64,000 bases of DNA from Candidatus Levyibacteriota bacterium (GTDB taxonomy: Bacteria > Patescibacteriota > Microgenomatia > Levybacterales > UBA12049): positions 9,113 to 73,112 of the forward strand of contig DAIDHL010000002.1 in assembly GCA_027459745.1 (NCBI GenBank), in the 5' to 3' direction. Under the pieces are notes generated by a model. The model worked only from the letters and a program-made list of their open reading frames with translations. It had not been told where the DNA came from and made no database searches. Both the position numbers and the translations under genes were made by a program. Positions within the stretch are counted from its first letter, which is position 1, and every line of letters begins with the position of its first letter. Shown piece by piece: positions 505 to 34,518 of this stretch.

Positions 505-2001
505 CTAAAAGTTAATGCTTAATTGATCTGAATCCTTATCTTCATCATCAATATCAAGCCACACTTTGACCCTACCATATTCTCCGTCATAACCTGGTTG
601 AATACTAATTTCCCCTTGACGGACCTTCCCGACTGCTTTGGCCAAGTGATCTCCCCCGACTCTACTAATGTCTGACAAACTAGCATGCAATAAAACATGC
701 AATTCTGAGTGTAATTCTGAACAAAGCTTGTTATATAAATTTTGTGATTTTTGGCTATTTACTGTCGAATGCAAACTTTCCGCTGCGATTTCCAACAGAG
801 GGACTAATTTTACAAACGGTGGATGCTTCTGGCTAGGATCTGTTAACCAAACCAAACCAGCAGCATCGATTTTCTTCTCACCAACGGCCAAGTCGGTCGT
901 GCCAGCGATTTGCTGCACTCGAAACTGCACTCCTTCTGTCAATTTTCGATGACAAACCGGACAAATATTCCCTTTATCTTTAATCTCTTCCGGTCCATAA
1001 GAGACTTTACAATTTCTATGACCTGAAAAATGATATTTCCCCTCTTCTGGATAAAATTCCACCGTGTAAAGGATACGGGAGGTGTTTGAGGTACCGGATG
1101 CACCGGATGTATTTAATCCTTCCGTACCTTCGGGGCTTTTGACTCCTTTGGTACCTGTTCTCATTATTGCTTGTCTAATATTTTTATAGGTTAATTCCGC
1201 TACCTCAAACACCGTCAACTCTCTTCCCATCTTCGGTGCAGAATGTGCATCAGAAAAAGATAATATTGAACGATTTTGCAATTCAGGGATCACCCAGTTC
1301 ATTTCCGGATCACTGGAAATACCCGTTTCGATGCCATAGACATATTTTGCTAAATCGCCAAAGGCTTCTTCCAGACTGTCAAAGCCACTGGCCGAACCAT
1401 AAACGCCAAAATGCGGGGTCCAAATATGACAAGGAGTCAGAATACAACGTTCATCAATATTTAAAATCATGTCCAATAAATCATGACACGACATTCCGAT
1501 AATTGGACGGCCGTCGCTGGCAATATTGGCTCCCCTTTTAACCAACGCCTGGTTAACTTTTTCTGCTATTTCCAGGTTCGGTACAAAAACTAAATTATGA
1601 ATCCTTCTAACTTTCTCTCCTTGTTTATAAATCAAACTAATTTCTGTAGATAATAAAAAACCCACGTTCCTTCCCACGTCATTGCGAGCCTCGCCTTGGC
1701 GAGGCGTGGCAATCTCTCTCAAGATTGCTTCGTTGCTCGTTACACTCGCTCCTCGCAATGACAACTTTTCCCCAGTTTGTTTTTCGCTCTCTACCCTTTG
1801 CTTTAACTGATATATTCCTTCATTTACTTCTTCCAGTTCATTGTGTATTTCCTTAAACCACACCGGATGCGTCCAATCACCCGTGGTTAACAAATTAATG
1901 CCTTTTTGTCTGGCATAGGTAGCCATCGTTTGCAGATTCATATTGGGAGACACTGCTCGCGAAAACTTGGAGTGCAGATGCAGATCAGCAATTATTTCCA
2001 T
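505..2001 (-). CDS. PHP-domain metal-dependent phosphoesterase-like protein carrying an in-frame palindromic-element insertion
   Basis: N-terminus 'ADLHLHSKFSRA' matches PHP motif I (HxH). A CxxC...CPVCH zinc-ribbon-like segment is present. Residues ~77-106 (LSLRGASVTSNEAILREIATPRQGEARND) are encoded by the palindromic element at 1678-1762. Confidence 0.6.
   Translation of the reverse strand: MEIIADLHLHSKFSRAVSPNMNLQTMATYARQKGINLLTTGDWTHPVWFKEIHNELEEVNEGIYQLKQRVESEKQTGEKLSLRGASVTSNEAILREIATPRQGEARNDVGRNVGFLLSTEISLIYKQGEKVRRIHNLVFVPNLEIAEKVNQALVKRGANIASDGRPIIGMSCHDLLDMILNIDERCILTPCHIWTPHFGVYGSASGFDSLEEAFGDLAKYVYGIETGISSDPEMNWVIPELQNRSILSFSDAHSAPKMGRELTVFEVAELTYKNIRQAIMRTGTKGVKSPEGTEGLNTSGASGTSNTSRILYTVEFYPEEGKYHFSGHRNCKVSYGPEEIKDKGNICPVCHRKLTEGVQFRVQQIAGTTDLAVGEKKIDAAGLVWLTDPSQKHPPFVKLVPLLEIAAESLHSTVNSQKSQNLYNKLCSELHSELHVLLHASLSDISRVGGDHLAKAVGKVRQGEISIQPGYDGEYGRVKVWLDIDDEDKDSDQLSINF
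1678..1762. repeat. Nested palindromic MITE/RPE-like element, copy A, inside the PHP-domain CDS
   Basis: Terminal inverted repeat GTCATTGCGAG ... CTCGCAATGAC. Internal palindromes CCTCGCC-TT-GGCGAGG and GCAATC...GATTGC. Same architecture as copies at 11612-11688 and 23434-23526. Confidence 0.7.
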
Positions 2002-11089: not shown

Positions 11090-12070
11090 TTAGCTTTGGC
11101 AGGCGGGGCAATAGAAAGTTCCCCTACCTCCCACCACTTCCCTTAAAATCTTGGCACCACATCTTGGACAATTCTTACCAACCTGTCCATATACTAAAAA
11201 ATGTTTTTGGTATTGTCCTTCTTGGCCAAGTGCATTTACAAAATTAGTCTCGCTCGCCCCACCCAAAGAAATACTTTTTTGTAAAACTGATTCGATGGCC
11301 TCAAATAAACTTCTGCTTTCAGTTTCACTTAAACTATTAGCACTTCGCTTGGGATTAATACGAGCTAACCATAACGCATCATTGGCATAAATATTACCTA
11401 TCCCACCAATCTTTTTTTGTTCCATTAATAATGGTTTGATAGAGCCTTTGTTGGGTTTAATAATTTGCTTAAACGTAGCTAAATCTAAATCTTTTAATGG
11501 TTCTGGACCGAGATCGCGGAAAAAAGATAAAGTTTTGAGTTCAGAAGTCTTTATAACTTTCAGCCAGCCAAATTGTCTGATGTCATTATAGAACAAAGTG
11601 GCTTCAAAACTGTCATTGCCAGGATTCATAGAAGCCGTGGCAATCTTACCTTTACTACTAGATTGCTTCGCTTTCGCTCGCAATGACGCAACATATTTCT
11701 CCCCAACTTTTAACTTTTGATTTTTAACTTTTAACTTAAATATTACGTGTGTATATTTATTTGGCAACTTCCCCATTACTTTCTTTGAATGCTCCACCTT
11801 TGACCCTTCTGTCTCCTTTGTCACCTGTGACCCCTCAAAAATGAGCTGTCCCGTCATCTTCACATGAATCGCCAAAGAATACTCATTATTGAAATGAATT
11901 ACTAACCCTTTACCAAACCGCTCGACCTGGATTATCTCGGCATCTAAAATATCTGCTTTATCACCAAAAAATAAGCGCGGCAAACGCACGTCGATCTCCG
12001 TGATAGTTAAACCGACTAAATGTTTCTCCAACCCTCTTCTAATGGTTTCAACTTCTGGTAATTCAGGCAT
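11090..12070 (-). CDS. fpg: Formamidopyrimidine-DNA glycosylase (Fpg/MutM) with an internal in-frame insertion
   Basis: N-terminus MPELPEVE (catalytic Pro2). C-terminal zinc finger CPRCG...CPACQ. At 326 aa it is about 50 aa longer than typical Fpg, and the palindromic element (copy C) is embedded in-frame. Confidence 0.85.
   Translation of the reverse strand: MPELPEVETIRRGLEKHLVGLTITEIDVRLPRLFFGDKADILDAEIIQVERFGKGLVIHFNNEYSLAIHVKMTGQLIFEGSQVTKETEGSKVEHSKKVMGKLPNKYTHVIFKLKVKNQKLKVGEKYVASLRAKAKQSSSKGKIATASMNPGNDSFEATLFYNDIRQFGWLKVIKTSELKTLSFFRDLGPEPLKDLDLATFKQIIKPNKGSIKPLLMEQKKIGGIGNIYANDALWLARINPKRSANSLSETESRSLFEAIESVLQKSISLGGASETNFVNALGQEGQYQKHFLVYGQVGKNCPRCGAKILREVVGGRGTFYCPACQS
11612..11688. 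repeat. Nested palindromic MITE/RPE-like element, copy C, in-frame inside fpg
   Basis: GTCATTGCCAG ... CTCGCAATGACG termini. Internal GGCAATC...GATTGCTTCG palindrome. Encodes the '...VASLRAKAKQSS...' segment of Fpg. Confidence 0.65.
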
Positions 12071-12205
12071 AATTCTTTCCTTTCATCTTGTTCCTTGCCC
12101 CGTAAACACGCCCTTGCGAGGCGAGGATGTAAACCTCGCGAGCAAGTAAGTGCTCTATGGGGTCAACCTCTGGTAATTCTGGCACTATTTTCTCCTTTTT
12201 GTAGG

Positions 12206-13243: not shown

Positions 13244-14434
13244 CTACTTACTACCAACTACTATCTTTTTTATTTCCTTCATAAATCTTTCTTTACTAAA
13301 CTTCTCAGCACGTTTCTCACATTCTTTAGGATCAAACTTCATTTTTTCAAACTTCTCCATGGCCTCAATAAGACTCTGTACACTTAAACCATCAAAGAAA
13401 AGTCCGGTTTTGCCTTCCACTACTGTTTCTTGTACTCCACCACTTCTATGGGCAATTACGGGCGTTCCAGCCGCCATACTTTCGACTGGCATGATACCAA
13501 AATCTTCATCCTCAGACGCAAACAAGTAAGCTTTTGCACCCCGATACAACTCCCACTTCTCTTCTTCTGTTACTTCCCCTAAAAACTCTATTAAACTGTC
13601 ATTCCGGACTTGATCCGGAATCTTCTGAGATCCTGAAACAAGTTCAGGATGACTACGTGCTATATCCTCCAGCTCGCTTCCATACCCGGCAAATGATTTA
13701 CCAAAAATCTTAAGCGGTTTATGCAGATCAATACACGCACGAATAATTAAATCTATATGTTTAGCTCTCGCTAATCTACCGCCAGCCAAATAGTATCCAG
13801 TATCTGGTATTTTGTATTTAATATTTTTGTGTTCCTTAATACTTGATGCTTGATACTTAATACCAATATCAACGGGTGGATATATCACAACCGCCTCTTT
13901 ACGATAGAATTTTTTAATACGTTTGGCCACTTCTTCTGAATTCGCAATATATTGATCCACATTTTGCGCTGCCACAAAATCTTGCATTCTTAATAAGTGA
14001 TTTGCTACATGAGCAGTAGCATTTAACCAAGGGTTTTTCTTCCAATTCCGCGCCGTAGCATATCCATATAGGTACCTAGGTGGTGTATGGCAGTAACAAA
14101 ATAACTTACCACTTTTTTTGTTCAATGTGTTGGGAATATAAGCCCCTGTGGACGAGGAGATAATCACATCAAATCCGGAGAAATCAAAATTTTTGAATAC
14201 TGATGATGATAAAAGTCGAAAAGGGCTGATCAATTTATGTTTAAAGGGAATGTTCTGCAAATAGGATGTCCTGATATCCCAATTGGCAAATCTTTGACGA
14301 TGCGGTCCCAAAAATTGCGGCAAATAAACTGAAGTGAACACGGGTGCATCCGGAAAAACCTCATGCAAAGCTTCCAATACTTTTTCTGCACCTCCGTATT
14401 CTTTGATATAATCATGTACTAATGCAACCTTCAT
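13244..14434 (-). CDS. Glycosyltransferase family 4 (GT-B fold)
   Basis: 'EDFGIMPVESMAAGTPVIAHRSGGVQETVVEGKTGLFFD' is the classical GT4 E-x7-E region. Confidence 0.8.
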   Translation of the reverse strand: MKVALVHDYIKEYGGAEKVLEALHEVFPDAPVFTSVYLPQFLGPHRQRFANWDIRTSYLQNIPFKHKLISPFRLLSSSVFKNFDFSGFDVIISSSTGAYIPNTLNKKSGKLFCYCHTPPRYLYGYATARNWKKNPWLNATAHVANHLLRMQDFVAAQNVDQYIANSEEVAKRIKKFYRKEAVVIYPPVDIGIKYQASSIKEHKNIKYKIPDTGYYLAGGRLARAKHIDLIIRACIDLHKPLKIFGKSFAGYGSELEDIARSHPELVSGSQKIPDQVRNDSLIEFLGEVTEEEKWELYRGAKAYLFASEDEDFGIMPVESMAAGTPVIAHRSGGVQETVVEGKTGLFFDGLSVQSLIEAMEKFEKMKFDPKECEKRAEKFSKERFMKEIKKIVVGSK

Positions 14435-20884: not shown

Positions 20885-20961
20885 ATCTTGTATTGTATGA
20901 CAATCACCCTGCTTGTGCAATAAACTCATACTTAATAGCGGCCGCTATATTCAGTTATATT

Positions 20962-21237
20962 TTAGTCAGTATATAAACCTGACTTAATTATTAACTGTTG
21001 TTGTTTTCTAACTCGTCTCTCAGTCATTTTATGCATTATACTTACGACTTCATTTAATTGTCTTTCTGTATAAGCTGAATTCCCTACGTAAGACTCATCT
21101 GGCTTTCTAGCTGATACCACAACTAGTTTTCCATTAACCCTTGTAATATCTTTATTCAACCCTACTCGAGGAGCAACCTCACCAGGTCGCAATTTAGGAG
21201 CAAAACCTTGCCTATTTTCTAATGTCATTATTGTCAC
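20962..21237 (-). CDS. Hypothetical protein
   Basis: 91-aa ORF overlapping the 3' end of the upstream ORF by 26 nt. Confidence 0.3.
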   Translation of the reverse strand: MTIMTLENRQGFAPKLRPGEVAPRVGLNKDITRVNGKLVVVSARKPDESYVGNSAYTERQLNEVVSIMHKMTERRVRKQQQLIIKSGLYTD

Positions 21238-21580
21238 CCCCTTTCAACAGTGGAACCACTGTTATTTCACTATGTTTAAATATTCTTTTTCTTATCCGAG
21301 TAATGCGAAAAATTGCCTTACAGTTAGGATCAGGACAAGCCACATCCGGATCAGTTGTCATGCAATCATTGGGATCAGTTATTCGCTGTTTAGCTGGCAA
21401 TAATGCCAACAAAGATCCCAAGGCATAAATCGTAAAAGTCTGACCTGACGGCATCGATAGATTTTCACCACTCAATTCAAAATAATCCCCGACTTTGTGA
21501 TTACAAACGAATTTGCTTTGCTCGCCAACAACTTCAATTTTTAAATCGTATAAAGTAAAATTTTCGTTTTGTTTTTTCAT
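21212..21580 (-). CDS. Hypothetical Cys-rich protein
   Basis: 122-aa ORF. A hairpin plus GGAGG lie upstream. Confidence 0.35.
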   Translation of the reverse strand: MKKQNENFTLYDLKIEVVGEQSKFVCNHKVGDYFELSGENLSMPSGQTFTIYALGSLLALLPAKQRITDPNDCMTTDPDVACPDPNCKAIFRITRIRKRIFKHSEITVVPLLKGGDNNDIRK

Positions 21581-21801
21581 ATTTCTTGCATTAAAAACCT
21601 CCTATTTAGGAGGTTCATTTATAGTGAAAAATGTGTTTTTCGCGACAAATCAGCCTCCACGTTGAGAGGTTCGCCAAGTAACTAAAGTGTCATGCTGAAC
21701 TTGATTCAGCATCTTAGAAGATTCTGAAATAAGTTCAAGACGACGAATTACCAAATGATTAAAATTATGATTCATATACTTATTTACCCCTTAGTTCTTT
21801 G

Positions 21802-22056
21802 CTAATTAATATTTTTAAAATTGCCTTTTTGAATTTCTTTGGAACCGCGAGTAACTGTTGCCACTCCTACTCCCAATTTTTCTGCAATTTCGTGTTGACT
21901 TACTCCTTCTTTGAGCATTTTTACTATTTCAATTCGACGAACAAATTCGTCGATTTCTGCGAATGTAAATAATCCAGCCAAGAAATTTTCCATCTCTTTC
22001 TTATCGCGAATTTCAGAAAAATGTTTAATAAGAATTTGCAAAGATTTAGCTTTCAT
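21802..22056 (-). CDS. TrpR-like YerC/YecD family DNA-binding protein
   Basis: About 84 aa. '...VSQHEIAEKLGVGVATVTRGSKEI' HTH typical of the YerC/YecD (TrpR-related) family. Confidence 0.6.
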   Translation of the reverse strand: MKAKSLQILIKHFSEIRDKKEMENFLAGLFTFAEIDEFVRRIEIVKMLKEGVSQHEIAEKLGVGVATVTRGSKEIQKGNFKNIN

Positions 22057-22158
22057 TTCATACTATTATACTAGTATATTAGTACGTTGTCAATAGGGAT
22101 AGTTACTTTATTATTTAAATCATTTTTGATCTTTGAACTTTGATTTTTGATCTTTATA

Positions 22159-23421
22159 CTACCCTAGCCATTCTTTCTTCATATCCTCAAACCTATCTTC
22201 TAAAATCGCTTCTCTAATCTGATCTACAAGATGAACTATGAAGTAAATATTATGAATTGAACCGAGTCGCTGAGACAATAATTCTTTGGCCATAAATAAA
22301 TGATGTAAATAAGCCCTGCTAAAATTCTGACAAGTAAAACACTCACAACCCGGATCCAGAGGGTTGGGATCTAATTGATATTGCGCATTGCTAATCTGCA
22401 TGGTGAAATTGCGTTCTTTTCTCCCACCATTCTGCGGATGTAAATATAAATTACCATGTCTACCCCTTCTAGTGGGCGCTACGCAATCAAAAAAGTCCAT
22501 GCCCCGACTGATGCCTTCAAATAAATCCTGCACTTCGCCAATACCGAGCATATGACGAGGTTTGTCTTCTTGAAAATAAGGCACACACCAATCCATCACT
22601 TGATATAAAACGTCTTTGGAAGTATATGATCCACCAATGGAAACAGCGGGAAAATATTTGTCCGTAAAACCAGCGGAAAACTTGCGCAGATCTTCATACA
22701 TTCCACCATGCACTACGCCATACATTAATTGGTCATTACGTTTTTGTGCTTGCAAACTAGCCACTCCCCAACGGCTCGTCCTTTCTAAGGATAATTTAGT
22801 TAATTCATAATCCCACAACGGCGATTCATGATCATCAAAAGCCACGATTAAATCTGCTCCCATTTGTTCCTGCAATTTGATAGAAACTTCTGAATCAAAC
22901 CACAATTTATTACCATCCAAATGCGAGTAAAACCAGACACCATCATCATGTACTCTGGCCGCTTTCAGCTTACTTAGTTCTTTATCAATTCTGGTCTTGG
23001 TAAATGATGGCAGTTGTAAACTTAAGTCAGCTGGTTCTATAAAAACCGACTTAGAGAACTTACTCATTTTTCGTCCATGTACATCTTTCAATACTACTTC
23101 TTTTTGCGCAATTCCTAATGAGAAAACTTGGAAACCGCCACTGTCGGTCATGGTAGGCTTATCCCATGACATGAACTTACCCAACCCCCCCATTTTGGCA
23201 ATAACTTCTGCTCCCGGACGGAGTCCAAGATGGTAAGTGTTAGAGAGTATAATTTGTGCTCCAATATCTTTTAAATCTTGTGCTGTCAATGTTTTAACAG
23301 TTGCCTGTGTTCCGACCGGATTGAAGTTTGGCGTCATAATTACACCATGTGGGGTAACCAGTCTTCCCACTCTAGCTTTTGAAGTTTTATCTCTTTTTTC
23401 GATGGTAAATTTAAAATTCAT
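22159..23421 (-). CDS. tgt: Queuine tRNA-ribosyltransferase
   Basis: 'DSGGFQV' and zinc site 'CECFTCQNFSRAYLHHL'. Met15 (MNFKFTIEK) is the likely start. The longer ORF to 23463 runs into palindromic element copy D. Confidence 0.85.
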   Translation of the reverse strand: MNFKFTIEKRDKTSKARVGRLVTPHGVIMTPNFNPVGTQATVKTLTAQDLKDIGAQIILSNTYHLGLRPGAEVIAKMGGLGKFMSWDKPTMTDSGGFQVFSLGIAQKEVVLKDVHGRKMSKFSKSVFIEPADLSLQLPSFTKTRIDKELSKLKAARVHDDGVWFYSHLDGNKLWFDSEVSIKLQEQMGADLIVAFDDHESPLWDYELTKLSLERTSRWGVASLQAQKRNDQLMYGVVHGGMYEDLRKFSAGFTDKYFPAVSIGGSYTSKDVLYQVMDWCVPYFQEDKPRHMLGIGEVQDLFEGISRGMDFFDCVAPTRRGRHGNLYLHPQNGGRKERNFTMQISNAQYQLDPNPLDPGCECFTCQNFSRAYLHHLFMAKELLSQRLGSIHNIYFIVHLVDQIREAILEDRFEDMKKEWLG

Positions 23422-23433
23422 ATAATAAAAAAC

Positions 23434-23526
23434 GTCATTGCGAGAACTGAAAGGACGAAGCAATCTATAAAAACCTACTAGATTGCTTCACTCACTCCGC
23501 CAGCTGGCGGATTTGTTCGCAATGAC
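23434..23526. repeat. Nested palindromic MITE/RPE-like element, copy D, intergenic between tgt and murD
   Basis: GTCATTGCGAG ... TTCGCAATGAC termini. Internal GAAGCAATC...GATTGCTTC and CCGCCAGCTGGCGG palindromes. Confidence 0.7.
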
Positions 23527-23530
23527 GAAA

Positions 23531-27345: not shown

Positions 27346-27420
27346 AGTACCAGGGATGAGATTCGAACCCATGACCGCTGCGTTATGAATGCAGTGCTCT
27401 AACCACTGAGCTACCCTGGC
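27346..27420 (-). tRNA. tRNA-Met (anticodon CAT), elongator or Ile2-type
   Basis: Cloverleaf on the minus strand: GCCAGGG acceptor, GCTC/GAGC D-stem, anticodon loop TTCATAA, T-loop TTCGAAT. Confidence 0.8.
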
Positions 27421-27535
27421 AGGTTTTTCAGTATCAAGTATAAAGTATTATGCATTAAGTATAAAGAGATTCTTCTTGTAGCTTTACTTTTCTTATACAA
27501 TTTCGTGCTTCTTAATCGGAATAAAGTATATCAGG

Positions 27536-27565
27536 TTGACCACGATCAAAGCAAACTGTTATAAT
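27536..27565 (+). promoter_or_regulatory. Sigma70-like promoter (TTGACC-18 nt-TATAAT) upstream of the initiator-like tRNA
   Basis: Near-consensus -35/-10 hexamers about 30 nt upstream of the tRNA 5' end at 27594. Confidence 0.45.
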
Positions 27566-27593
27566 GGTTATCGCGCACAAGCGCCATTCAACA

Positions 27594-27661
27594 TGCGGGG
27601 TAATGTACGGTGCATAAAGGGCTCATAATCCTTTTGGTCAGGTTCAACTCCTGACCCCGCA
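27594..27661 (+). tRNA. Initiator-like tRNA-Met (CAT) with reduced D-arm
   Basis: Acceptor TGCGGGG/CCCCGCA plus A73 is the same as the E. coli tRNA-fMet acceptor/3' end. GGG-containing anticodon stem and loop CTCATAA. Perfect T-arm TCAGG-TTCAACT-CCTGA. Only 16 nt lie between the acceptor and anticodon stems (3-bp D stem). Confidence 0.5.
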
Positions 27662-27664
27662 ACA

Positions 27665-28018
27665 CTAGTTATTAAAGAAGTAGTTCCACCATTGTTTCCA
27701 GTTAGGTTGTTGTAATTGAATTTGATCTGGTTGACTTGCATCTACTGAATTCAAAGTTCCACTTGGAATTAACACCAAATTCTCTCCTGGTTTGACTAAT
27801 AACAGTTTATCCCGGGCTTGTTCCTGTACAAATTGTGATTGGGAAACTTGCTTTAATTGTTCCGTTAGTTGATCATGTTTCTTTTGTTCTTGCTTGAGAC
27901 TGGTTTGTGCTTCAATTAAATATCGTCTCTCTTCCCAGGTGGTAATAATAGAATGGGCTAAATTATTTATAATTATTAAACAAATAATTATTGTGGTAAA
28001 AATTATGATATTTTTCAT
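27665..28018 (-). CDS. Septum formation initiator family protein (FtsB/DivIC-like)
   Basis: N-terminal TM, coiled coil, then 'ARDKLLLVKPGENLVLI', typical of FtsB/DivIC. Confidence 0.6.
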   Translation of the reverse strand: MKNIIIFTTIIICLIIINNLAHSIITTWEERRYLIEAQTSLKQEQKKHDQLTEQLKQVSQSQFVQEQARDKLLLVKPGENLVLIPSGTLNSVDASQPDQIQLQQPNWKQWWNYFFNN

Positions 28019-28087
28019 GAGTTATTAATAATCATACTTTTCATGCTTGACTTACGCTCAGAATATTGATATTATGGGCTTCACAAT

Positions 28088-28948
28088 ATGAAGCAAGTTA
28101 GCGTACGTGACGCACATAAAGAATTTACGGACTTCCTGCGTGAAAAAAAACATTCCAGTGCTACCATTTTAGCATACGGCAAAGACATCGATCAGTTAGC
28201 TAGTTTTCTCGGAGAAATGCAAAAACATCAAGTACATGAGATCAATAAGGATGATCTTCAAGCATTTCTCGCCAAGATGACAGAAAAAGGCTATACTCCC
28301 AAATCTGTATCTAGAAAATTAAATTCTACACGTACTTTTTATCGTTTTCTGAAAGTCAATGAATATATTACCGATGATCCTTCCCTCTTAGTTTCTCATC
28401 CACACTATGAGTTAGCCGCTCCCCGCATTTTAAAGCCAACTGAATATCGAGCCTTAAGAGATGCTTCCAAAAATGATCCGCGCATGTATGCCGTAATTGA
28501 GTTATTGTTGCAAACAGGCATTCGCATTGGAGAGTTAGCTATGTTGAAGTTAGAGGATATGCGTGATGATGGATTATTAATTAGACCTTTTGAGAAGCAC
28601 GAAGAACGCGTAGTTCCACTTAACAAACCAGCTCGTGAAGCCTTAAATCGTTATTTAAAAGTCCGCCCACAAGTAGAGAATAATCATATTTTTATTACAA
28701 AATCGGGTAAGCCTTTCTTGGTTCGCAATATCCGCACGGCAATTGAGCGCTATTTCCGTTTGGCGGGAATTGAAGATGCCAAAGTAAATGATTTGCGTCA
28801 TACATTCGTAGTTCATCACTTAAAACATGGTGTTTCTTTGGTTTTATTGTCTAAAATTCTTGGTCACAAGAGACTCTCTACTACTGAAAGATATTTAGAA
28901 TATGTTACAGATCGCGGTAAGGATACTTCTGTGTTAAGTGAACTTTAA
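28088..28948 (+). CDS. Tyrosine recombinase, XerC/XerD-like
   Basis: N-terminal core-binding (SAM-like) domain. Catalytic 'R...GIRIGEL', 'RHTFVVHHL', 'LGHKRLSTTERYLEY' (R-H-R-Y). Confidence 0.8.
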   Translation: MKQVSVRDAHKEFTDFLREKKHSSATILAYGKDIDQLASFLGEMQKHQVHEINKDDLQAFLAKMTEKGYTPKSVSRKLNSTRTFYRFLKVNEYITDDPSLLVSHPHYELAAPRILKPTEYRALRDASKNDPRMYAVIELLLQTGIRIGELAMLKLEDMRDDGLLIRPFEKHEERVVPLNKPAREALNRYLKVRPQVENNHIFITKSGKPFLVRNIRTAIERYFRLAGIEDAKVNDLRHTFVVHHLKHGVSLVLLSKILGHKRLSTTERYLEYVTDRGKDTSVLSEL

Positions 28949-29140
28949 TCCATAATCGTTTATAACGTTAAAAGTCATAATGTTATAAAGCAATTCTATT
29001 TTATAACTTTAAAAACTTTATAGACTTTATAACGAACCTCTGTTGCACCCCAAGGCTATTTCATAGTACAATTCTTCATTAGTAGTAAGGTTTAAGCGAA
29101 TTTCCCTTATTCCTGTCTACTATTACCTTTAAACTAACTT

Positions 29141-29225
29141 GGAGAGGTCGCATAGTGGTCGAGTGCAGCGGTTTACTAAACCGCCGATCCGCAAGGGTTC
29201 GGGGGTTCGAATCCCCCCCTCTCCG
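29141..29225 (+). tRNA. tRNA-Ser (type II). Anticodon reads ACT as folded
   Basis: GGAGAGG acceptor, G73 discriminator, long variable arm, T-arm GGGGG-TTCGAAT-CCCCC. Anticodon stem GCGGT/ACCGC with loop TTACTAA. Confidence 0.7.
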
Positions 29226-29240
29226 CTTTCACCCGCCGAA

Positions 29241-29289
29241 GCTACGTTCATGTACCTGAACGTAGCGAAGGAGGGCGTCATCCTCCTTC
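29241..29289 (+). terminator. Two consecutive perfect hairpins downstream of tRNA-Ser
   Basis: GCTACGTTCA-TGTACC-TGAACGTAGC (10-bp stem) immediately followed by GAAGGAGG-GCGTCAT-CCTCCTTC (8-bp stem). Confidence 0.45.
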
Positions 29290-29428
29290 AGTTCGGATTG
29301 GTTTGAGCGGACATTGTCCGATGAAAATCACTAGTGTGACATTAAACGTCTCGCCTTCATTCTACAATCTACCTCCTAGATCCTACTTATTTGACAACTT
29401 TCCCCGCTTACTCTACGATAAATTTAAT

Positions 29429-29980
29429 ATGCCCAAGAACTGTCTGGTATCCATTTTCGTCCTTACACTATTTATATCTATCTTAATTTTGGCCAAACCT
29501 ACGATGGCACTAGCTGACAACTGTACTAACATTTCCCCCTCTAGCGCTCCAAATTTATTTCAGATCAAACGTGCCAGTGCTTCGGCTCAACTTTTTTTCT
29601 CACCTTTGCCTACGGATCAAACCATTAGTGGATATACTATTTCCTATGGCTTTACCCCCGGGGATGAACGATATGCCACCTCTTTTGCCTATGGAAGTTC
29701 AACCGGTGTAGTTGCCTACACCATAAATAGTTTAGACTATAAAGAAGGCTATGTTTTCAAGGTCAGAGCGGATAATGGCTGTGCCCCAGGTCCCTGGAGT
29801 AATTATCGATCAGATGGCATTCATCCAGCCACTACAACCACTAATACAAAGGCTGGTTTGCCCGTCACTGGCAGTACCGATAATACAATTTATGCTTTGT
29901 ACGTTCTGGTTAGTTTGGTACTAGCTGGAAGCTTTATTTTCTTTAATCCCCACAAAATTTTGTTTAAAGTGAACAAATAA
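29429..29980 (+). CDS. LPXTG-anchored surface protein with FN3-like domain
   Basis: Signal peptide (MPKNCLVSIFVLTLFISILILAKPTMALA), Ig/FN3-like middle region, then C-terminal 'LPVTG' plus hydrophobic helix plus short tail. The ORF could start upstream at 29303. Confidence 0.55.
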   Translation: MPKNCLVSIFVLTLFISILILAKPTMALADNCTNISPSSAPNLFQIKRASASAQLFFSPLPTDQTISGYTISYGFTPGDERYATSFAYGSSTGVVAYTINSLDYKEGYVFKVRADNGCAPGPWSNYRSDGIHPATTTTNTKAGLPVTGSTDNTIYALYVLVSLVLAGSFIFFNPHKILFKVNK

Positions 29981-29997
29981 AGTAAAATATAGTCGCT

Positions 29998-31791
29998 ATG
30001 CAACGGTATTTACCTATTTTTAAGGCTTTTAGAGAGCCGCTGATCGTTTTGGGCACTATCTTGCTCTACGGCCTACTCTTTTTTTTCCAGGCGTATTTAT
30101 GGGCGCTAGGCCTTATCTTAATCGGTATATTGGTAGGAAGCTATCGGCTGTTTGCTGATCTCTACGAATCTTTGCGCAAAGGCCAGTATGCTTTGGATTA
30201 TATTGCCGCTTTGGCTATTCTAGTGTCCTTTATTACGGGCCAATTTCTGGTTTGTGCAGTTATCGCGTTGATGATCTCTACTGGCAGGAATCTGGAAGAT
30301 TATGGAGTCTCACAGGCCAAAAAATCACTTTCATTATTAGCTAAGCGTATACCCCAGGATGTAACACTTTATGAAAAGAATAAACCTGGAGAAAAAATAA
30401 GATTAAACAAAGTTACGGTAGGACAAAAAATTATTATCCGCAAAGGTGAAGTTATACCTTTGGATGGCAACTTGGAGTCCAACAATGGGCAACTTGATGA
30501 GTCGTCTCTCACTGGTGAGCCGTATTTCATTGATAAAATAAAAGGCGATATTATTCGCTCCGGAACACTTAATGTCGGTGAACCCATCGTTATTAACGTC
30601 ACGAAAGTGGAGAAAGATTCTACCTATCGCAAGATTATTGAAATGGTACAGGCTGCGCAAAATGAAAAAGCACCTCTAGTACGTTTAGCAGATAAATATA
30701 GTACCTATTTTACGCTTATTACTCTCGTCATTGCTGCCATTGGTTTTAATCTTTCTGGTGGGCTAACTGGAGCATTGGCGGTGTTGGTCATCGCTACTCC
30801 TTGCCCGTTGATACTAGCTACTCCCATTGCCTTACTCGGCGGTATGAATGCCGCAGCCAAACAACGTATTATTATCAAAAAACTATCCAGCTTAGAGAGC
30901 TTATCACGAGCCACAGCTATGGTTTTTGATAAAACAGGTACAATTACCATTGGTAAACCTCAAGTTACGAAAATAACTCTCAAAAATTCTGCCTATAAAA
31001 TTCCTGATTTACTCTCCATTGCTGCCGCCATCGAAAGAAATTCACTTCACCCTATTGCTAAAGCCATTGTTAATTATGCCACTGAGCAAAAAGCCAAACA
31101 GCTTACGGCTAGTGACGTCAAAGAAATCATTGGTAAAGGCATCAGTGCGAAGGTCAACAATCGACAATACGTACTTAATCGAGCCAAGAACAATACAACT
31201 GTAGGCATTGCGATAGATCTATTGGAAAACAATAAATTAATTGCGGTCATTTTGTTAGAGGATGAGATTAAGGAGTCTTCCCGTGTCAGTATCAAACAAT
31301 TAGCGAAAAAACTAGATTTATATATTTTTACCGGTGATAAACAATCTGAAGCCCAAAGAATTGCCAACATCCTTGATTCGACGGTCAAAGTGCAAGCTGA
31401 AATGACACCCGCAGATAAACAACAAGGAATTGAAAAACTGCAAGCAGAAGGAAAAGTGGTAGCCATGCTGGGAGATGGGATTAATGATGCTCCGGCTTTA
31501 GCTAAAGCTGACATCGGGATGGTATTTAGTAACGAAGAACAAACAGCCGCCTCAGAAGCTGCCGACATTGTTTTATTAGGTGGGAATTTTCAGCTCGCCC
31601 AAACTACCATTAACATTTCTAAAAAAACCGTGGCGATTGCTTTGCAAAGTATTCGTTGGGGCATTGGTCTAAGTATCTTGGGCATGATTATTGCCGCCTT
31701 TGGTTTTATTCCCCCTATTTTGGGTGCTGGTTTACAAGAAGCTATTGACGTAGCAGTTATCCTCAATGCTCTCCGCGCCAGCCGCAGCTGA
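29998..31791 (+). CDS. P1B-type (heavy-metal) P-type ATPase lacking N-terminal metal-binding domain
   Basis: 'TGEP' actuator motif, 'CPL' in TM6 (ATPCPLILATP), 'DKTGTIT' phosphorylation site, 'GDGINDAPALAKADIG' hinge. Confidence 0.8.
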   Translation: MQRYLPIFKAFREPLIVLGTILLYGLLFFFQAYLWALGLILIGILVGSYRLFADLYESLRKGQYALDYIAALAILVSFITGQFLVCAVIALMISTGRNLEDYGVSQAKKSLSLLAKRIPQDVTLYEKNKPGEKIRLNKVTVGQKIIIRKGEVIPLDGNLESNNGQLDESSLTGEPYFIDKIKGDIIRSGTLNVGEPIVINVTKVEKDSTYRKIIEMVQAAQNEKAPLVRLADKYSTYFTLITLVIAAIGFNLSGGLTGALAVLVIATPCPLILATPIALLGGMNAAAKQRIIIKKLSSLESLSRATAMVFDKTGTITIGKPQVTKITLKNSAYKIPDLLSIAAAIERNSLHPIAKAIVNYATEQKAKQLTASDVKEIIGKGISAKVNNRQYVLNRAKNNTTVGIAIDLLENNKLIAVILLEDEIKESSRVSIKQLAKKLDLYIFTGDKQSEAQRIANILDSTVKVQAEMTPADKQQGIEKLQAEGKVVAMLGDGINDAPALAKADIGMVFSNEEQTAASEAADIVLLGGNFQLAQTTINISKKTVAIALQSIRWGIGLSILGMIIAAFGFIPPILGAGLQEAIDVAVILNALRASRS

Positions 31792-32039
31792 ATTAGTTGA
31801 AAGTCCATAGAGTTTATAAAGTAATTTTGCTTTATGAACCTTATAACTAATTTCCTATTGACAAACAATTGGCACTAATGATATAACTATTGCTAGCACT
31901 GGGTTGAGATTGATTGCTAAATATACTATTCACCTATTGCTTGCGAAGTTTGTTAATTATTTTAAAGATGTATAAGTAAAATTGAGGTATCTTTCATTCT
32001 ACTTATACTTAATTCTAAACGAAAGGAGGCGAGAAATAA

Positions 32040-32456
32040 ATGGCATTTGATATTACACCACGTTCATTTTGGACATTTCCAACGATGCGTTCACTCATGG
32101 ATGAGGTAGACGACTTAGTCGTTTCCCCTACTTCCACCAGTGGATTGTCCGTATCTGAAGATGACCACAACGTTTATGTTAAAGCTGCCGTGCCAGGTAT
32201 TGATCCTAAAGATGTCGAAATAACTTTCGACAAGGGTGTACTCTGGATTAAAGCTGAGAGTAAACAAGAAGAAAAAGACGCCAAACAGAAAGTCTATAAA
32301 CAAATGGCAAGTTCTTTTTCTTATCGTGTCGTAGTTCCAGGTGAGTTAGATCAGGCCAAAGAACCTGAAGCTACTTACAAACATGGAATCATGACGGTTG
32401 CATTTGCAAAATTACCGCAAAGCCAGCCGAAAAAAATTGCAGTTAAGTCTGCTTAA
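32040..32456 (+). CDS. Hsp20/alpha-crystallin family small heat-shock protein
   Basis: Alpha-crystallin domain ('VYVKAAVPGIDPKDVEITFDKGVLWIKAE...HGIMTVAFAK'). Confidence 0.85.
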   Translation: MAFDITPRSFWTFPTMRSLMDEVDDLVVSPTSTSGLSVSEDDHNVYVKAAVPGIDPKDVEITFDKGVLWIKAESKQEEKDAKQKVYKQMASSFSYRVVVPGELDQAKEPEATYKHGIMTVAFAKLPQSQPKKIAVKSA

Positions 32457-32480
32457 AAGAGCAATGCTCCTAGAAGGTAA

Positions 32481-32510
32481 AAGAGGGCTCCACTTATGTG
32501 GAGCCCTCTT
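32481..32510. terminator. Bidirectional rho-independent terminator hairpin
   Basis: Perfect 13-bp stem AAGAGGGCTCCAC-TTAT-GTGGAGCCCTCTT flanked by T-rich runs. Lies between the sHSP gene (+) and tRNA-Ser (-). Confidence 0.7.
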
Positions 32511-32514
32511 ATTG

Positions 32515-32601
32515 CGGAGGAGGGGGGATTCGAACCCCCGGTCATCTCGCGACGACAAACGCTTTCCAAGCGTTCGCACTAGACCACTATGCGACCCCTC
32601 C
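32515..32601 (-). tRNA. tRNA-Ser (GGA)
   Basis: GGAGGGG acceptor, anticodon stem AACGC/GCGTT with loop TTGGAAA, long variable arm, T-arm GGGGG-TTCGAAT-CCCCC, G73. Confidence 0.8.
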
Positions 32602-32623
32602 AGGATAGTTAAAAGGCACCTTT

Positions 32624-33064
32624 CTACTTATTTAAATACTTTCTTGCTTCTTCCCACACCTTTTTATCAGCGGGGAAAGTTAAACGATTTTCTACTTCCT
32701 CTACTGGCAGCCATTCGACATTTTCCATCTCAAAATCATGTTTAGTAATATCTCCACCCACAAATTCCATGATAAAATAATAAACTGTTTTTTTAATCTT
32801 CTGTCCCTCAAAGTGATACCAGTATGTTTCCGGCGTCAATGATTGTAAAATCTTTCCTTTAGCGCCAGTTTCTTCTTCAACTTCTCTTAAAGCTGTTTCT
32901 TCTTTACTCTCCCCCTTTTTATGATCTCCAATCAATCCTTTAGGAAAGACCCAACCATGATGTTGTGAATGCTGTGCGACCAAAATAAGTATCTTATTTT
33001 GTCCTGAGCTTGTCGAAGGATCTTTTTTATACACCACACCGCCGGCAGAAAATTCGAATTTCAT
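32624..33064 (-). CDS. NUDIX hydrolase
   Basis: Nudix box 'GESKEETALREVEEETG'. Confidence 0.8.
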   Translation of the reverse strand: MKFEFSAGGVVYKKDPSTSSGQNKILILVAQHSQHHGWVFPKGLIGDHKKGESKEETALREVEEETGAKGKILQSLTPETYWYHFEGQKIKKTVYYFIMEFVGGDITKHDFEMENVEWLPVEEVENRLTFPADKKVWEEARKYLNK

Positions 33065-33162
33065 TGGAGCTTATTATAGCGCATTTTGCACAAGATGAGA
33101 ATTATTTCACAACTTATTTCGTAAATTTTGATTTTTGAAGTTTAAATTTTAAACTTAGGTAG

Positions 33163-33234
33163 TACCCCCGGCGGGAGTTGAACCCACATATTAGGATCCG
33201 GAATCCTATGGTCTATCCATTAGCCTACGAGGGC
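33163..33234 (-). tRNA. tRNA-Arg (CCG)
   Basis: GCCCTCG acceptor (two G-U pairs), anticodon stem TAGGA/TCCTA with loop TTCCGGA, T-arm GTGGG-TTCAACT-CCCGC. The D-stem has one mismatch. Confidence 0.6.
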
Positions 33235-33251
33235 AAAATTATTTTTATGAG

Positions 33252-33343
33252 TGGCGGAGAGGGGGAGATTCGGACTCCCGGTCAGGAAAAATCCCAACAG
33301 CGGTTTTCGAAACCACCGCACTAGACCACTATGCGACCTCTCC
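33252..33343 (-). tRNA. tRNA-Ser (CGA) with encoded CCA
   Basis: GGAGAGG acceptor, anticodon loop TTCGAAA, long variable arm, T-arm GGGAG-TCCGAAT-CTCCC, G73 then CCA. Confidence 0.85.
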
Positions 33344-33359
33344 CTATTATCTAATTTAG

Positions 33360-33433
33360 TACACCCGGGTGGATTCGAACCACTGACCTCAACGTCCGCA
33401 ACGTTGCGCTCTATCCAGCTGAGCTACGGGTGC
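33360..33433 (-). tRNA. tRNA-Arg with apparent GCG anticodon
   Basis: GCACCCG acceptor. D-arm GCTCAGCTGGATAGAGC is characteristic of tRNA-Arg(ACG). Anticodon stem CAACG/CGTTG with loop TTGCGGA. Confidence 0.65.
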
Positions 33434-33500
33434 ATATGGAAGGACAACACATATTTTAGCCTATAAAGAGTTCAGAGGCAAATGATAAAGCTCTAAGAAT

Positions 33501-34262
33501 CTATTTTGTGGTCGAGGGAACCTTATCCAGAGGAAAAGTGCGCGTAAGCCAATTCCCTGATTTTTCCATAAATGATAAAGGCACCACTTCACGATATGGC
33601 AAATAATTTATCAATAACGACTTGATATATTCTTTGGGGATGTCTCCCAAAAGTACTGTTATATCGCTTGCATATTCATCCTTGGTACGAATATGCAAGA
33701 TATCTTCCCCATTAATATGTTTGAAATAAAAATCATATAACTCTTGCCAGAGATAAAAATAATCATCAATAGCAATTCCTTCAGTGCTTATTCGATAATT
33801 GACGGTGTGAGGAGGTACTACGGCCAAGGCGAAAACCACAAATAGCATAGAAATAATTACAAGCATCAGAACATATTGAGAAAACAAAAATAACAATACT
33901 TCAAAAATCAGCACGATTAGAGATGCATTGATGTAATATTCCTTACCATGATTTCTAAATGGTCTACCATTGCCTTTCCAAGAAAGAAGAGTTTTGATGG
34001 GATGTGAAGCATAATCTGGGTCATAATCATCAGCAAAATAAGGATCGGTAGCGAGGTCATCATTTACAAACTGCTGTTCCTGATTATTGGTGTACATCTG
34101 CTCTGGCTGTTCGTTGGATTCAGTTGGTAATGCTTCGGGCGGGGGTAAGTTAGCCGAAGGTTGTTCCACCGGATTATCATAACTAGATGTTAAATCTGTA
34201 GGTGGCATTGGGTTGATCGGTTGATTAGAGGTCGACGGTACGACAGGATTCTCGTCTGGCAT
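33501..34262 (-). CDS. Hypothetical membrane protein with Pro/Gln-rich N-terminal region
   Basis: Low-complexity N-terminus and two central TM helices. Confidence 0.4.
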   Translation of the reverse strand: MPDENPVVPSTSNQPINPMPPTDLTSSYDNPVEQPSANLPPPEALPTESNEQPEQMYTNNQEQQFVNDDLATDPYFADDYDPDYASHPIKTLLSWKGNGRPFRNHGKEYYINASLIVLIFEVLLFLFSQYVLMLVIISMLFVVFALAVVPPHTVNYRISTEGIAIDDYFYLWQELYDFYFKHINGEDILHIRTKDEYASDITVLLGDIPKEYIKSLLINYLPYREVVPLSFMEKSGNWLTRTFPLDKVPSTTK

Positions 34263-34428
34263 AGCTCTATGCTACTCTAAATTCGTCTATCCAGTCAAGT
34301 TGTGGAAGTTTGCATCGTAAGGTAGATTCATAGTAAAATCTGGGGACTAGAGTCTGGAAAATCTAAGGTGGCTTATAAAGTTAAGATTAGACATGAAAGT
34401 TAAAACAATAAAATGTAAGGTTCAATTT

Positions 34429-34518
34429 GGAGAGGTCGCATAGTGGTCTAGTGCGGTGGTCTTGAAAACCACTGTGGGAGCAATCTCACCGCGAGTTCGA
34501 ATCTCGCCCTCTCCGCCA
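34429..34518 (+). tRNA. tRNA-Ser (TGA) with encoded CCA
   Basis: GGAGAGG acceptor, anticodon stem GTGGT/ACCAC with loop CTTGAAA, long variable arm, T-arm GCGAG-TTCGAAT-CTCGC, G73 plus CCA. Confidence 0.85.

Follow-up and report, generated by a model that had tools for sequence, protein, structure and literature searches.

A 64-kb stretch of a Candidatus Levyibacteriota genome (assembly GCA_027459745.1, contig DAIDHL010000002.1, positions 9,113 to 73,112; this whole stretch is the window below) harbours three copies of a short palindromic element, two of which lie in frame within genes for DNA-repair enzymes. We consider it likely that these are non-autonomous repetitive extragenic palindromic (REP) repeats of the CGTC-tagged type, arranged as inverted dimers in the manner of REP doublets forming hairpins (REPINs). 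As members of a described class, the copies, here assigned to an ATTGC family, do not represent a novel kind of element. The new points are the Candidate Phyla Radiation (CPR) as host group, a sequence family for which we found no description, and the broad unannotated distribution of that family; the further cases of an unexplained association with DNA-repair genes are also new.

Inverted hairpin dimers in the window

Copy c1 (1677-1763; units 1677-1716 on the + strand and 1721-1763 on the - strand) lies inside an endonuclease Q (EndoQ) family gene encoding a PHP domain and a zinc ribbon (505-2001, - strand, 498 aa). Copy c2 (11611-11688; units 11611-11647, +, and 11659-11688, -) lies inside fpg, the gene for the Fpg/MutM DNA glycosylase (11090-12070, - strand, 326 aa). 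Copy c3 (23433-23527; units 23433-23467, +, and 23479-23527, -) occupies the spacer between murD and tgt, where it starts 4 nt beyond the stop codon of murD and leaves about 12 nt to the probable start of tgt, an ATG at 23421. A preliminary description of this DNA had located four copies; those at 1678-1762, 11612-11688 and 23434-23526 were found where it had put them, with the gene contexts and peptides it quoted, whereas a fourth at 12076-12140 did not hold up, as discussed below.

The same description had credited the copies with shared 11-nt termini and an inner palindrome. Allowing up to one mismatch, the 11-mer GTCATTGCGAG matches six times in the window, namely at both ends of c1, c2 and c3, against a mean of 0.58 matches in dinucleotide shuffles, none of 100 of which reached six; single mismatches occur in the c2 left arm (GTCATTGCCAG) and the c3 right arm (TTCGCAATGAC). 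The termini thus stood in three copies, but the inner palindrome GAAGCAATC...GATTGCTTC is exact in c3 only, one arm reading GTGGCAATC in c1 and c2. A covariance model of the half-element, or unit, trained on 90 units from other genomes, recovered exactly six units in the window with E values between 1e-8 and 4e-4 (2e-7 and 3e-6 for c1, 4e-4 and 1.6e-6 for c2, 1.2e-8 and 2e-4 for c3) and no other significant match. Folding, which had been proposed as a check, gave the same picture: on either strand all three copies fold far better than shuffled sequence (z -3.7 to -6.9). Four of the six units carry the tag CGTC and two TGTC, their tails read CTC, CTT or CTA, and in the covariance-model alignment the c1 unit at 1677-1716 has the distal hairpin GCCTCGCC-TT-GGCGAGGC.

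Alignment of the window copies in both orientations, and then of 267 further copies from public sequence, revealed more than a terminal inverted repeat around an inner palindrome: the element consists of two hairpin units in inverted orientation. A unit runs from the tag (C/T)GTC through ATTGC, GA, a variable hairpin bounded by G and C, GAA (or GTG/GCG) and GCAAT to a 3-nt tail. ATTGC and GCAAT form a basal stem of 5 bp, GA faces GAA (or GTG/GCG) across an internal loop, and the distal hairpin of variable sequence has a stem of 2-8 bp and a loop of 3-9 nt. Units are separated by spacers of 2-51 nt, most commonly 24-28, and whole copies measure 70-97 nt with no bias towards multiples of three (44/44/37). 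Among 227 dimers, all 454 unit interiors start with GAG and 317 end with CGAA; tails are CCA in 253 units, CTC in 100 and CCC in 28. The most frequent interiors, GAGCGAAGCGAA and GAGGAGCGAAGCGACGAA, both contain GCGAAGC, which we take to be an unusually stable DNA mini-hairpin, and some copies swap the interior for an unrelated GC-rich hairpin such as GGCTCGCC-GCA-GGCGAGCC.

The hairpin is conserved through compensatory change. Across 90 aligned distinct units the basal ATTGC/GCAAT helix is invariant (90 of 90), while in the distal helix 52 cells have changed on both sides, compared with 13.3 in shuffles (none of 500 reached 52), and pairing stands at 83.9% versus 20-54% when the partner columns are slid. 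Of 125 copies, 119 have C or T immediately before GTC (C in 84, T in 35) and 122 have G or A as the mirror base on the right, a bias that marks the tag as part of the element.

Such an anatomy fits poorly with a classical miniature inverted-repeat transposable element (MITE), that is, a deletion derivative of an insertion sequence with a DDE transposase, moved by cut-and-paste through terminal inverted repeats of 11-13 bp. Conserved, covarying halves that each form a hairpin with a 4-nt tag are a REP-like trait that a MITE would not be expected to show, even though clear terminal inverted repeats, a length of 70-97 bp and many dispersed copies are all features that a MITE would share. In the 125 copies we found no target-site duplication at any length, direct repeats of 1-8 nt occurring at chance level, and in this the element differs from MITEs. 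In addition, the termini are identical across phyla of very different GC content, and the neighbourhoods of copies in 240 loci yielded no recurrent transposase. On this evidence a MITE origin appears highly unlikely.

At three loci elsewhere (L081 553-635, L002 4343-4426 and L106 6210-6296) the flanks extend the palindrome by 6-11 bp past the tags, and these copies look as if they had been placed within a pre-existing hairpin. Similar 'target palindromes' have been described for other REP families, according to a 2013 survey (PMC3733652).

The fourth proposed copy, a 'degenerate relative' at 12076-12140 in the spacer upstream of fpg, is a local palindrome whose membership of the family is unsupported. 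It carries neither terminus, gave no covariance-model match at E<=10 and folds only marginally above chance (z -2.3). Read by eye, the palindrome at 12105-12152 (CTTGC-GAG-GCGAGG-atgtaaa-CCTCGC-GA-GCAAG) mimics the layout of one unit, and 10 of 12 bases agree with CGTCATTGCGAG; it could be a decayed singleton or chance.

In-frame copies and their host proteins

The EndoQ and Fpg proteins of the window are intact, full length and retain the invariant residues of their families, Fpg having both its N-terminal PELPEVE and its C-terminal zinc finger. As had been claimed, both genic copies are in frame and read through without a stop: translated from the - strand, c1 gives LSLRGASVTSNEAILREIATPRQGEARND and c2 gives ASLRAKAKQSSSKGKIATASMNPGND. 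Their cores, from GTC to GAC, measure 85 nt in c1 and 76 nt in c2, neither a multiple of three, so that the frame is kept only together with adjoining bases. The conserved left terminus is open in three frames (VIA, SLR, HCE) and the right terminus in two (RND, LAMT), the third ending in TGA. All genic copies in the window end in ...AAT GAC, encoding (R/G)ND, where the alternative frame ...CAA TGA would stop, and this (R/G)ND end frame is used by every convincing genic copy, in the window and elsewhere.

A generic scan of the window for GTCAT followed by a hairpin gave 5 matches versus 0.8 in shuffles and uncovered a second CGTC-REP family, absent from the preliminary description. One dimer of this family, at 13597-13653, has 8-bp stems (ATTCCGGA and ATCCTGAA) with 5-nt loops (CTTGA and CTTGT) in the layout TGTC-ATTCCGGA-CTTGA-TCCGGAAT-CT...ATCCTGAA-ACAAG-TTCAGGAT-GAC. 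It lies in frame in a gene for a family-4 glycosyltransferase (13244-14434, - strand, 396 aa; assigned from the Pfam families of the relative's orthologue), in which it encodes SHPELVSGSQKIPDQVRND. In the closest relative, GCA_027459725.1, the orthologous protein shows 80% identity and is missing precisely the 19 codons (57 nt) of 13597-13653, the cleanest insertion boundary in the window. We had entertained the idea that the net insert always equals the core plus 2 nt; it was dropped, as the glycosyltransferase copy has a core of 56 nt and a net insert of 57 nt.

The other second-family dimer, at 21688-21745, is intergenic and reads TGTC ATGCTGAA CTTGA TTCAGCAT..., its partner unit being degenerate. 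Across both families, all five elements of the window are inverted dimers with the tags outward. The dimer at 21688-21745 sits within a stretch of about 1.2 kb (~20930-22160) between tgt and a tRNA synthetase gene that contains three small open reading frames (ORFs; 84, 122 and 91 aa); the corresponding spacer in the relative (L241 1421-1567) measures only 145 bp. Directly upstream of the 84-aa ORF (21802-22056) is a perfect sigma-70-like promoter match at 22093-22065 on the - strand (TTGACA, 17 nt, TATAAT; 12/12).

The relative GCA_027459725.1 offers one 37-kb contig that is syntenic with roughly positions 500-24900 of the window. Its EndoQ (P0002, 74% identity in the alignment) and Fpg (P0122, 73%) are the nearest orthologues of the window's proteins and lack the c1 and c2 segments, respectively, and its murD-tgt spacer lacks c3. 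Over 20.9 kb of this relative's syntenic sequence we found no unit of either family, where the matching part of the window has five dimers. At the EndoQ and Fpg sites the DNA alignment with the relative is too diverged to give exact insertion boundaries. The orthologue comparison that the preliminary description had called for came out in its favour, and the segments appear to have been inserted into the proteins and not inherited as part of them.

Loop length varies at both sites among CPR orthologues, and the segments might on that account be vertically inherited, lineage-specific protein loops that are palindromic by chance. We find this scarcely credible: a family model built from other genomes recognises both segments at the DNA level, the same element occurs between genes as c3, the nearest orthologues are without the segments, and the peptide types VIAS...PRND and SLR...RND recur in unrelated proteins.

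The Fpg loop has a minimal length of 9 residues in 42 of 119 orthologues and reaches up to 49 residues in the others. By an eye count, about 9 of the 119 carry loop peptides typical of other CGTC-REP families, of the types RHSG...ARMT, VIPSE...GRDD and SLRRK...AQHDN (REP-type peptides are seen in P0139, P0155, P0216, P0172, P0203, P0124 and P0140). For EndoQ, an eye count over the 120 closest orthologues puts in-frame ATTGC-family copies in about 17, distributed over two loops; P0006 has PSLRVEAKQSTAKNEIAASPSAPRND at the loop used in the window and about 16 others have VIAS/VIAR...PRND at the second loop (orthologues with REP-type loop peptides include P0006, P0004, P0009, P0010, P0042, P0073, P0078, P0084, P0108 and P0114). 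Several different REP families occupy the same Fpg and EndoQ loops across different CPR lineages. This sharing of loops suggests hot spots for insertion, or old insertions that have been replaced repeatedly.

Adjoining c2 is an A-rich short-period repeat, aagttaaaagttaaaaatcaaaagttaaaagtt, at 11689-11730, which encodes KLKVKNQKLKV. Similar stretches rich in K, S, Q and N (KLKSQKSKVK..NSKVKN, SEIRNPKSETNSNFQN) are present in the same loops of many CPR Fpg and EndoQ orthologues, and repeats of this kind may have expanded the loops by a separate route.

Placement of the inserts was followed up in AlphaFold2 models built with about 120 orthologues, for which the mean predicted local distance difference test score (pLDDT) was 90.5 for Fpg and 85.4 for EndoQ. 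The Fpg insert (residues ~116-155) scores 53-63 and lies between strands 107-115 and 156-163; the EndoQ insert (residues 71-110) scores 47-57 and lies between strands 63-66 and 114-127. PDB homologues of both proteins, for EndoQ the PfuEndoQ structures 5ZB8 and 7K30, align on both sides of the inserts and not across them. Low-confidence loops between confident strands, together with alignment on the two sides only, indicate that the inserts are extruded loops, a placement that the preliminary description had suggested checking in structure models. The inserts are presumably neutral.

Distribution beyond the window

We searched public sequence for the pattern GTCATTGCGAG-N45-75-CTCGCAATGAC, for which the chance expectation is about 1 in 596 Gb (31 gaps x 596e9 / 4^22, equal base frequencies). 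It was found at at least 120 loci in species-representative genomes and at least 120 in viral contigs, and a related terminal pattern at at least 120 loci in metagenomes. The pattern recurs on a large scale beyond the window, and the recurrence test set by the preliminary description also came out in its favour. Among the matches listed, hosts include Alpha-, Beta-, Gamma- and Deltaproteobacteria (with many Bradyrhizobium and sphingomonads, a Rickettsiales metagenome-assembled genome (MAG) and Micavibrio), Bacteroidota (Mucilaginibacter, Pedobacter and Flavobacterium), Chloroflexi, Planctomycetota, a cyanobacterium and Patescibacteria, including Berkelbacteria. The termini are identical across these phyla of very different GC content. 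A metagenome scan for a low-GC variant with a CT tail returned mostly high-GC contigs.

The family has largely escaped annotation. At gathering thresholds, Rfam holds no family matching the element in the window; its sole matches there are six tRNA genes, clustered at 27348-34515. A plasmid search returned copies at places with no listed feature, 38 of them on one Novosphingobium replicon. When a profile of the VIAS...PRND peptide was compared with 5.8 billion proteins, only ORFs of 32-83 aa without a Pfam domain were retrieved (P0241-P0327), almost all unnamed or called 'hypothetical protein' and drawn from many metagenomes; these hits list short ORFs and are not a census of host genes. The elements seed spurious gene calls. 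In the window itself, mechanical ORF calling runs tgt from a TTG codon through c3 (LLRPFSSRND..., 23421-23463).

Position relative to genes was assessed in loci below 47% GC, since open frames carry information there; in high-GC contigs long stop-free frames do not. Stop-to-stop ORFs that cross copies in high-GC genomes were inspected visually, and most were set aside as spurious antisense frames. In the low-GC loci, 58 of 63 copies of the ATTGC family are intergenic and 5 lie inside long ORFs. The preliminary description had supposed a mobile element that tolerates or selects for in-frame insertion: tolerance is seen, but selection for it is not what these counts indicate. Since most copies are intergenic, the genic ones would be survivors of purifying selection and not a targeted outcome.

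In-frame genic copies occur elsewhere in UvrA (L045 2835-2921, VIASKAKQSHSTGSANNGIATSPLAPRND, in a MAG unrelated to the window's genome) and GuaA (L039 4466-4543), hosts identified by ORF reading, and, by the same reading, in two viral-contig ORFs resembling phage portal proteins (L211 5727-5810 and L235 941-1015), the latter two drawn from a wider set of loci. All four read VIA...PRND, and their lengths of 87, 78, 84 and 75 nt are multiples of three.

The intergenic majority raises the alternative that the element is a structural motif maintained by its hosts, either as an RNA hairpin at 3' ends serving termination or mRNA stabilisation or as a binding site for a DNA-structuring protein, with selection in place of ongoing mobility and with genic copies as accidental by-products. 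The start of c3 only 4 nt past the murD stop, the conservation of structure by covariation and the reported position of the published CGTC class, mainly within 20 bp of 3' ends (PMC3733652), would all suit such a role. The whole of c3 went unflagged in a terminator scan, whose limit is exceeded by the element's loop. Near-identical termini across dozens of phyla and viral contigs would be left unexplained by host selection, as would the differences in presence at four orthologous sites between the window and its close relative and the copies inside coding loops. We therefore judge it unlikely as the main explanation, although it is compatible with mobile REP-type dimers as a secondary role.

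Relation to REP classes and mode of spread

Di Nocera, De Gregorio and Rocco (2013; BMC Genomics 14:522; PMC3733652) divided REPs into two superfamilies by an unpaired terminal GTAG or CGTC. In their account, the CGTC tag varies to TGTC and CCTC, stems of 8-9 bp start with A-T pairs and enclose loops of 4-5 nt, and the tail is CCA-like. Most repeats form head-to-head dimers, the majority with spacers of 20-100 bp, and are found between genes in convergent or co-directional arrangement, no more than about 20 bp from 3' ends. Occasional copies are intragenic, 'many' of them in replication and repair genes (UvrABCD, RecBCD, PolA and DnaE2). Encoded peptides include VIPAKAGI, SFPRKRES and DSRLRGND (CGTC-1), VIPGLDPGIH and DGRVKPGHD (CGTC-3), VIPWLDHGI (CGTC-4) and RHSELVSGS (CGTC-2). 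The repeats were reported from five phyla, among which Patescibacteria/CPR, Chloroflexi, Planctomycetes and Cyanobacteria do not appear.

The ATTGC family shares with these repeats the CGTC/TGTC tag, the A-T start of the stem, the short tail, an arrangement as inverted dimers able to form a single long hairpin, and a position just beyond 3' gene ends with some in-frame intragenic copies, several of them in DNA-repair genes. The second family is closer still in its details: its stem starts ATTCCGGA, ATCCTGAA and ATGCTGAA follow the A-T rule, it has the 8-bp stem and 5-nt loop of CGTC-2, and its peptide SHPELVSGS resembles the Sulfurovum CGTC-2 peptide RHSELVSGS. The peptide types of the ATTGC family (VIAS.., SLRG.., ..PRND and ..LAMT) are absent from those tabulated in PMC3733652. 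It is possible that the ATTGC family is the published 'Bradyrhizobium CGTC-1 with loops of different length', a comparison made through the text and peptides of that paper. Literature searches with the exact termini and the consensus matched only unrelated primers, and searches for such repeats in Patescibacteria (CPR) returned no report.

Rickettsia palindromic elements (RPEs), reportedly the subject of work by Ogata et al. in 2000 and 2002, were the analogy drawn in the preliminary description. Like RPEs, the genic copies are stop-free, in-frame palindromic insertions in otherwise intact genes of a small, gene-dense genome and are absent from orthologues; RPE-1 is longer, at about 100-150 bp. 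The likeness goes beyond analogy: the intragenic Rickettsia conorii repeats of CGTC-1 and CGTC-4 are RPE-4 and RPE-6, which places these in the same superfamily as the window elements, whose architecture is that of CGTC REPs (PMC3733652). Host phylum and sequence family differ, as compared through the encoded peptides; rickettsial CGTC copies encode VIPAKAGI/SFPRKRES/DSRFRGND or the VIPWLDHGI type, unlike the window peptides (same source).

In the other superfamily, GTAG REPs and REPINs are thought to be moved on single-stranded DNA by RAYTs (REP-associated tyrosine transposases of the Y1/HUH type; Bertels and Rainey 2011, PMC3116915; Nunvar et al. 2010, PMC2817692). The window elements resemble REPINs in having two inverted REP hairpins with a short spacer that form one long hairpin, in being non-autonomous and in causing no target duplication. 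They differ in that REPINs have a GTAG tag and a single-copy RAYT gene flanked by REPs, where the tag here is CGTC/TGTC and no RAYT-like neighbour was found in 240 loci or, by a crude HUH-motif scan, in the window.

If the elements are mobile CGTC-tagged dimers, they would spread as single-stranded hairpin DNA, and an enzyme acting in trans, not encoded beside the copies, would cut next to the tag and rejoin the DNA without duplicating the target. A single-strand route with such an enzyme is suggested by analogy: a conserved tag adjoining the hairpin, stems that covary, dimers in inverted arrangement and the absence of target duplication all parallel GTAG REPs and REPINs and favour it. Most copies would settle just past 3' gene ends, and in a gene-dense CPR genome some would land inside genes. 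Persistence of these genic copies would require a site in a surface loop, a net length that preserves the reading frame and a frame that the termini leave open, the outcome being a translated, disordered loop of 19-29 residues in an otherwise intact enzyme.

Several points weigh against this account. The stem of the ATTGC family is interrupted, in contrast to the continuous 8-9 bp with a 4-5 nt loop of published CGTC repeats. Internally, c1-c3 diverge considerably, with a mean column identity of 55% in the alignment, and an overall likeness of about 55% is unlike a fresh burst from one master copy. Presence and absence against a single relative cannot separate gain in the window from loss in the relative, and translation of the inserts (for example the segment SLRGASVTSNEAILREIATPRQGEARND) is presumed from the frame and the absence of stops. 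Clustering of ORFs within 600 bp of the elements, and then over whole loci, revealed no recurrent gene family near them in the 240 loci: the 600-bp clusters held only the element's own translations, and the whole-locus clusters were ORF families of the viral set that, by reading, resemble phage or gene transfer agent structural proteins. In the window, the crude search for the HUH motif gave no ORF, and the 2013 paper likewise reports no dedicated transposase for CGTC repeats.

The repair-gene pattern reported in 2013 (PMC3733652) recurs here in a different phylum and in different enzymes: EndoQ, Fpg and UvrA. On this basis one may ask whether intragenic CGTC REPs are drawn to, or kept in, DNA-repair enzymes that interact with the hairpin or cruciform DNA of the element, with insertions that tune repair and so let the family persist. 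We regard this as a long shot.

In aggregate, these results add the Candidate Phyla Radiation to Rickettsia and the few other bacteria with 'protein-coding palindromes', and they provide one concrete source for the unexplained protein insertions that are common in CPR. They also bring together one unannotated repeat family, with the termini GTCATTGCGAG/CTCGCAATGAC, that is spread across many bacterial phyla and viral contigs. Gene callers yield spurious ORFs of 30-80 aa over the element; recognising it avoids false 'novel domains' and mis-called starts, such as the one that lengthens tgt from a TTG codon across c3. For the question of how CGTC REPs move, which dates from 2013, a tiny genome with several families, alongside a relative that is copy-free in the syntenic region, is a tractable place to search for the enzyme. 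If the family has indeed expanded in this CPR genome of about 1 Mb while the close relative is without it, that search would narrow to a short list of differential genes.

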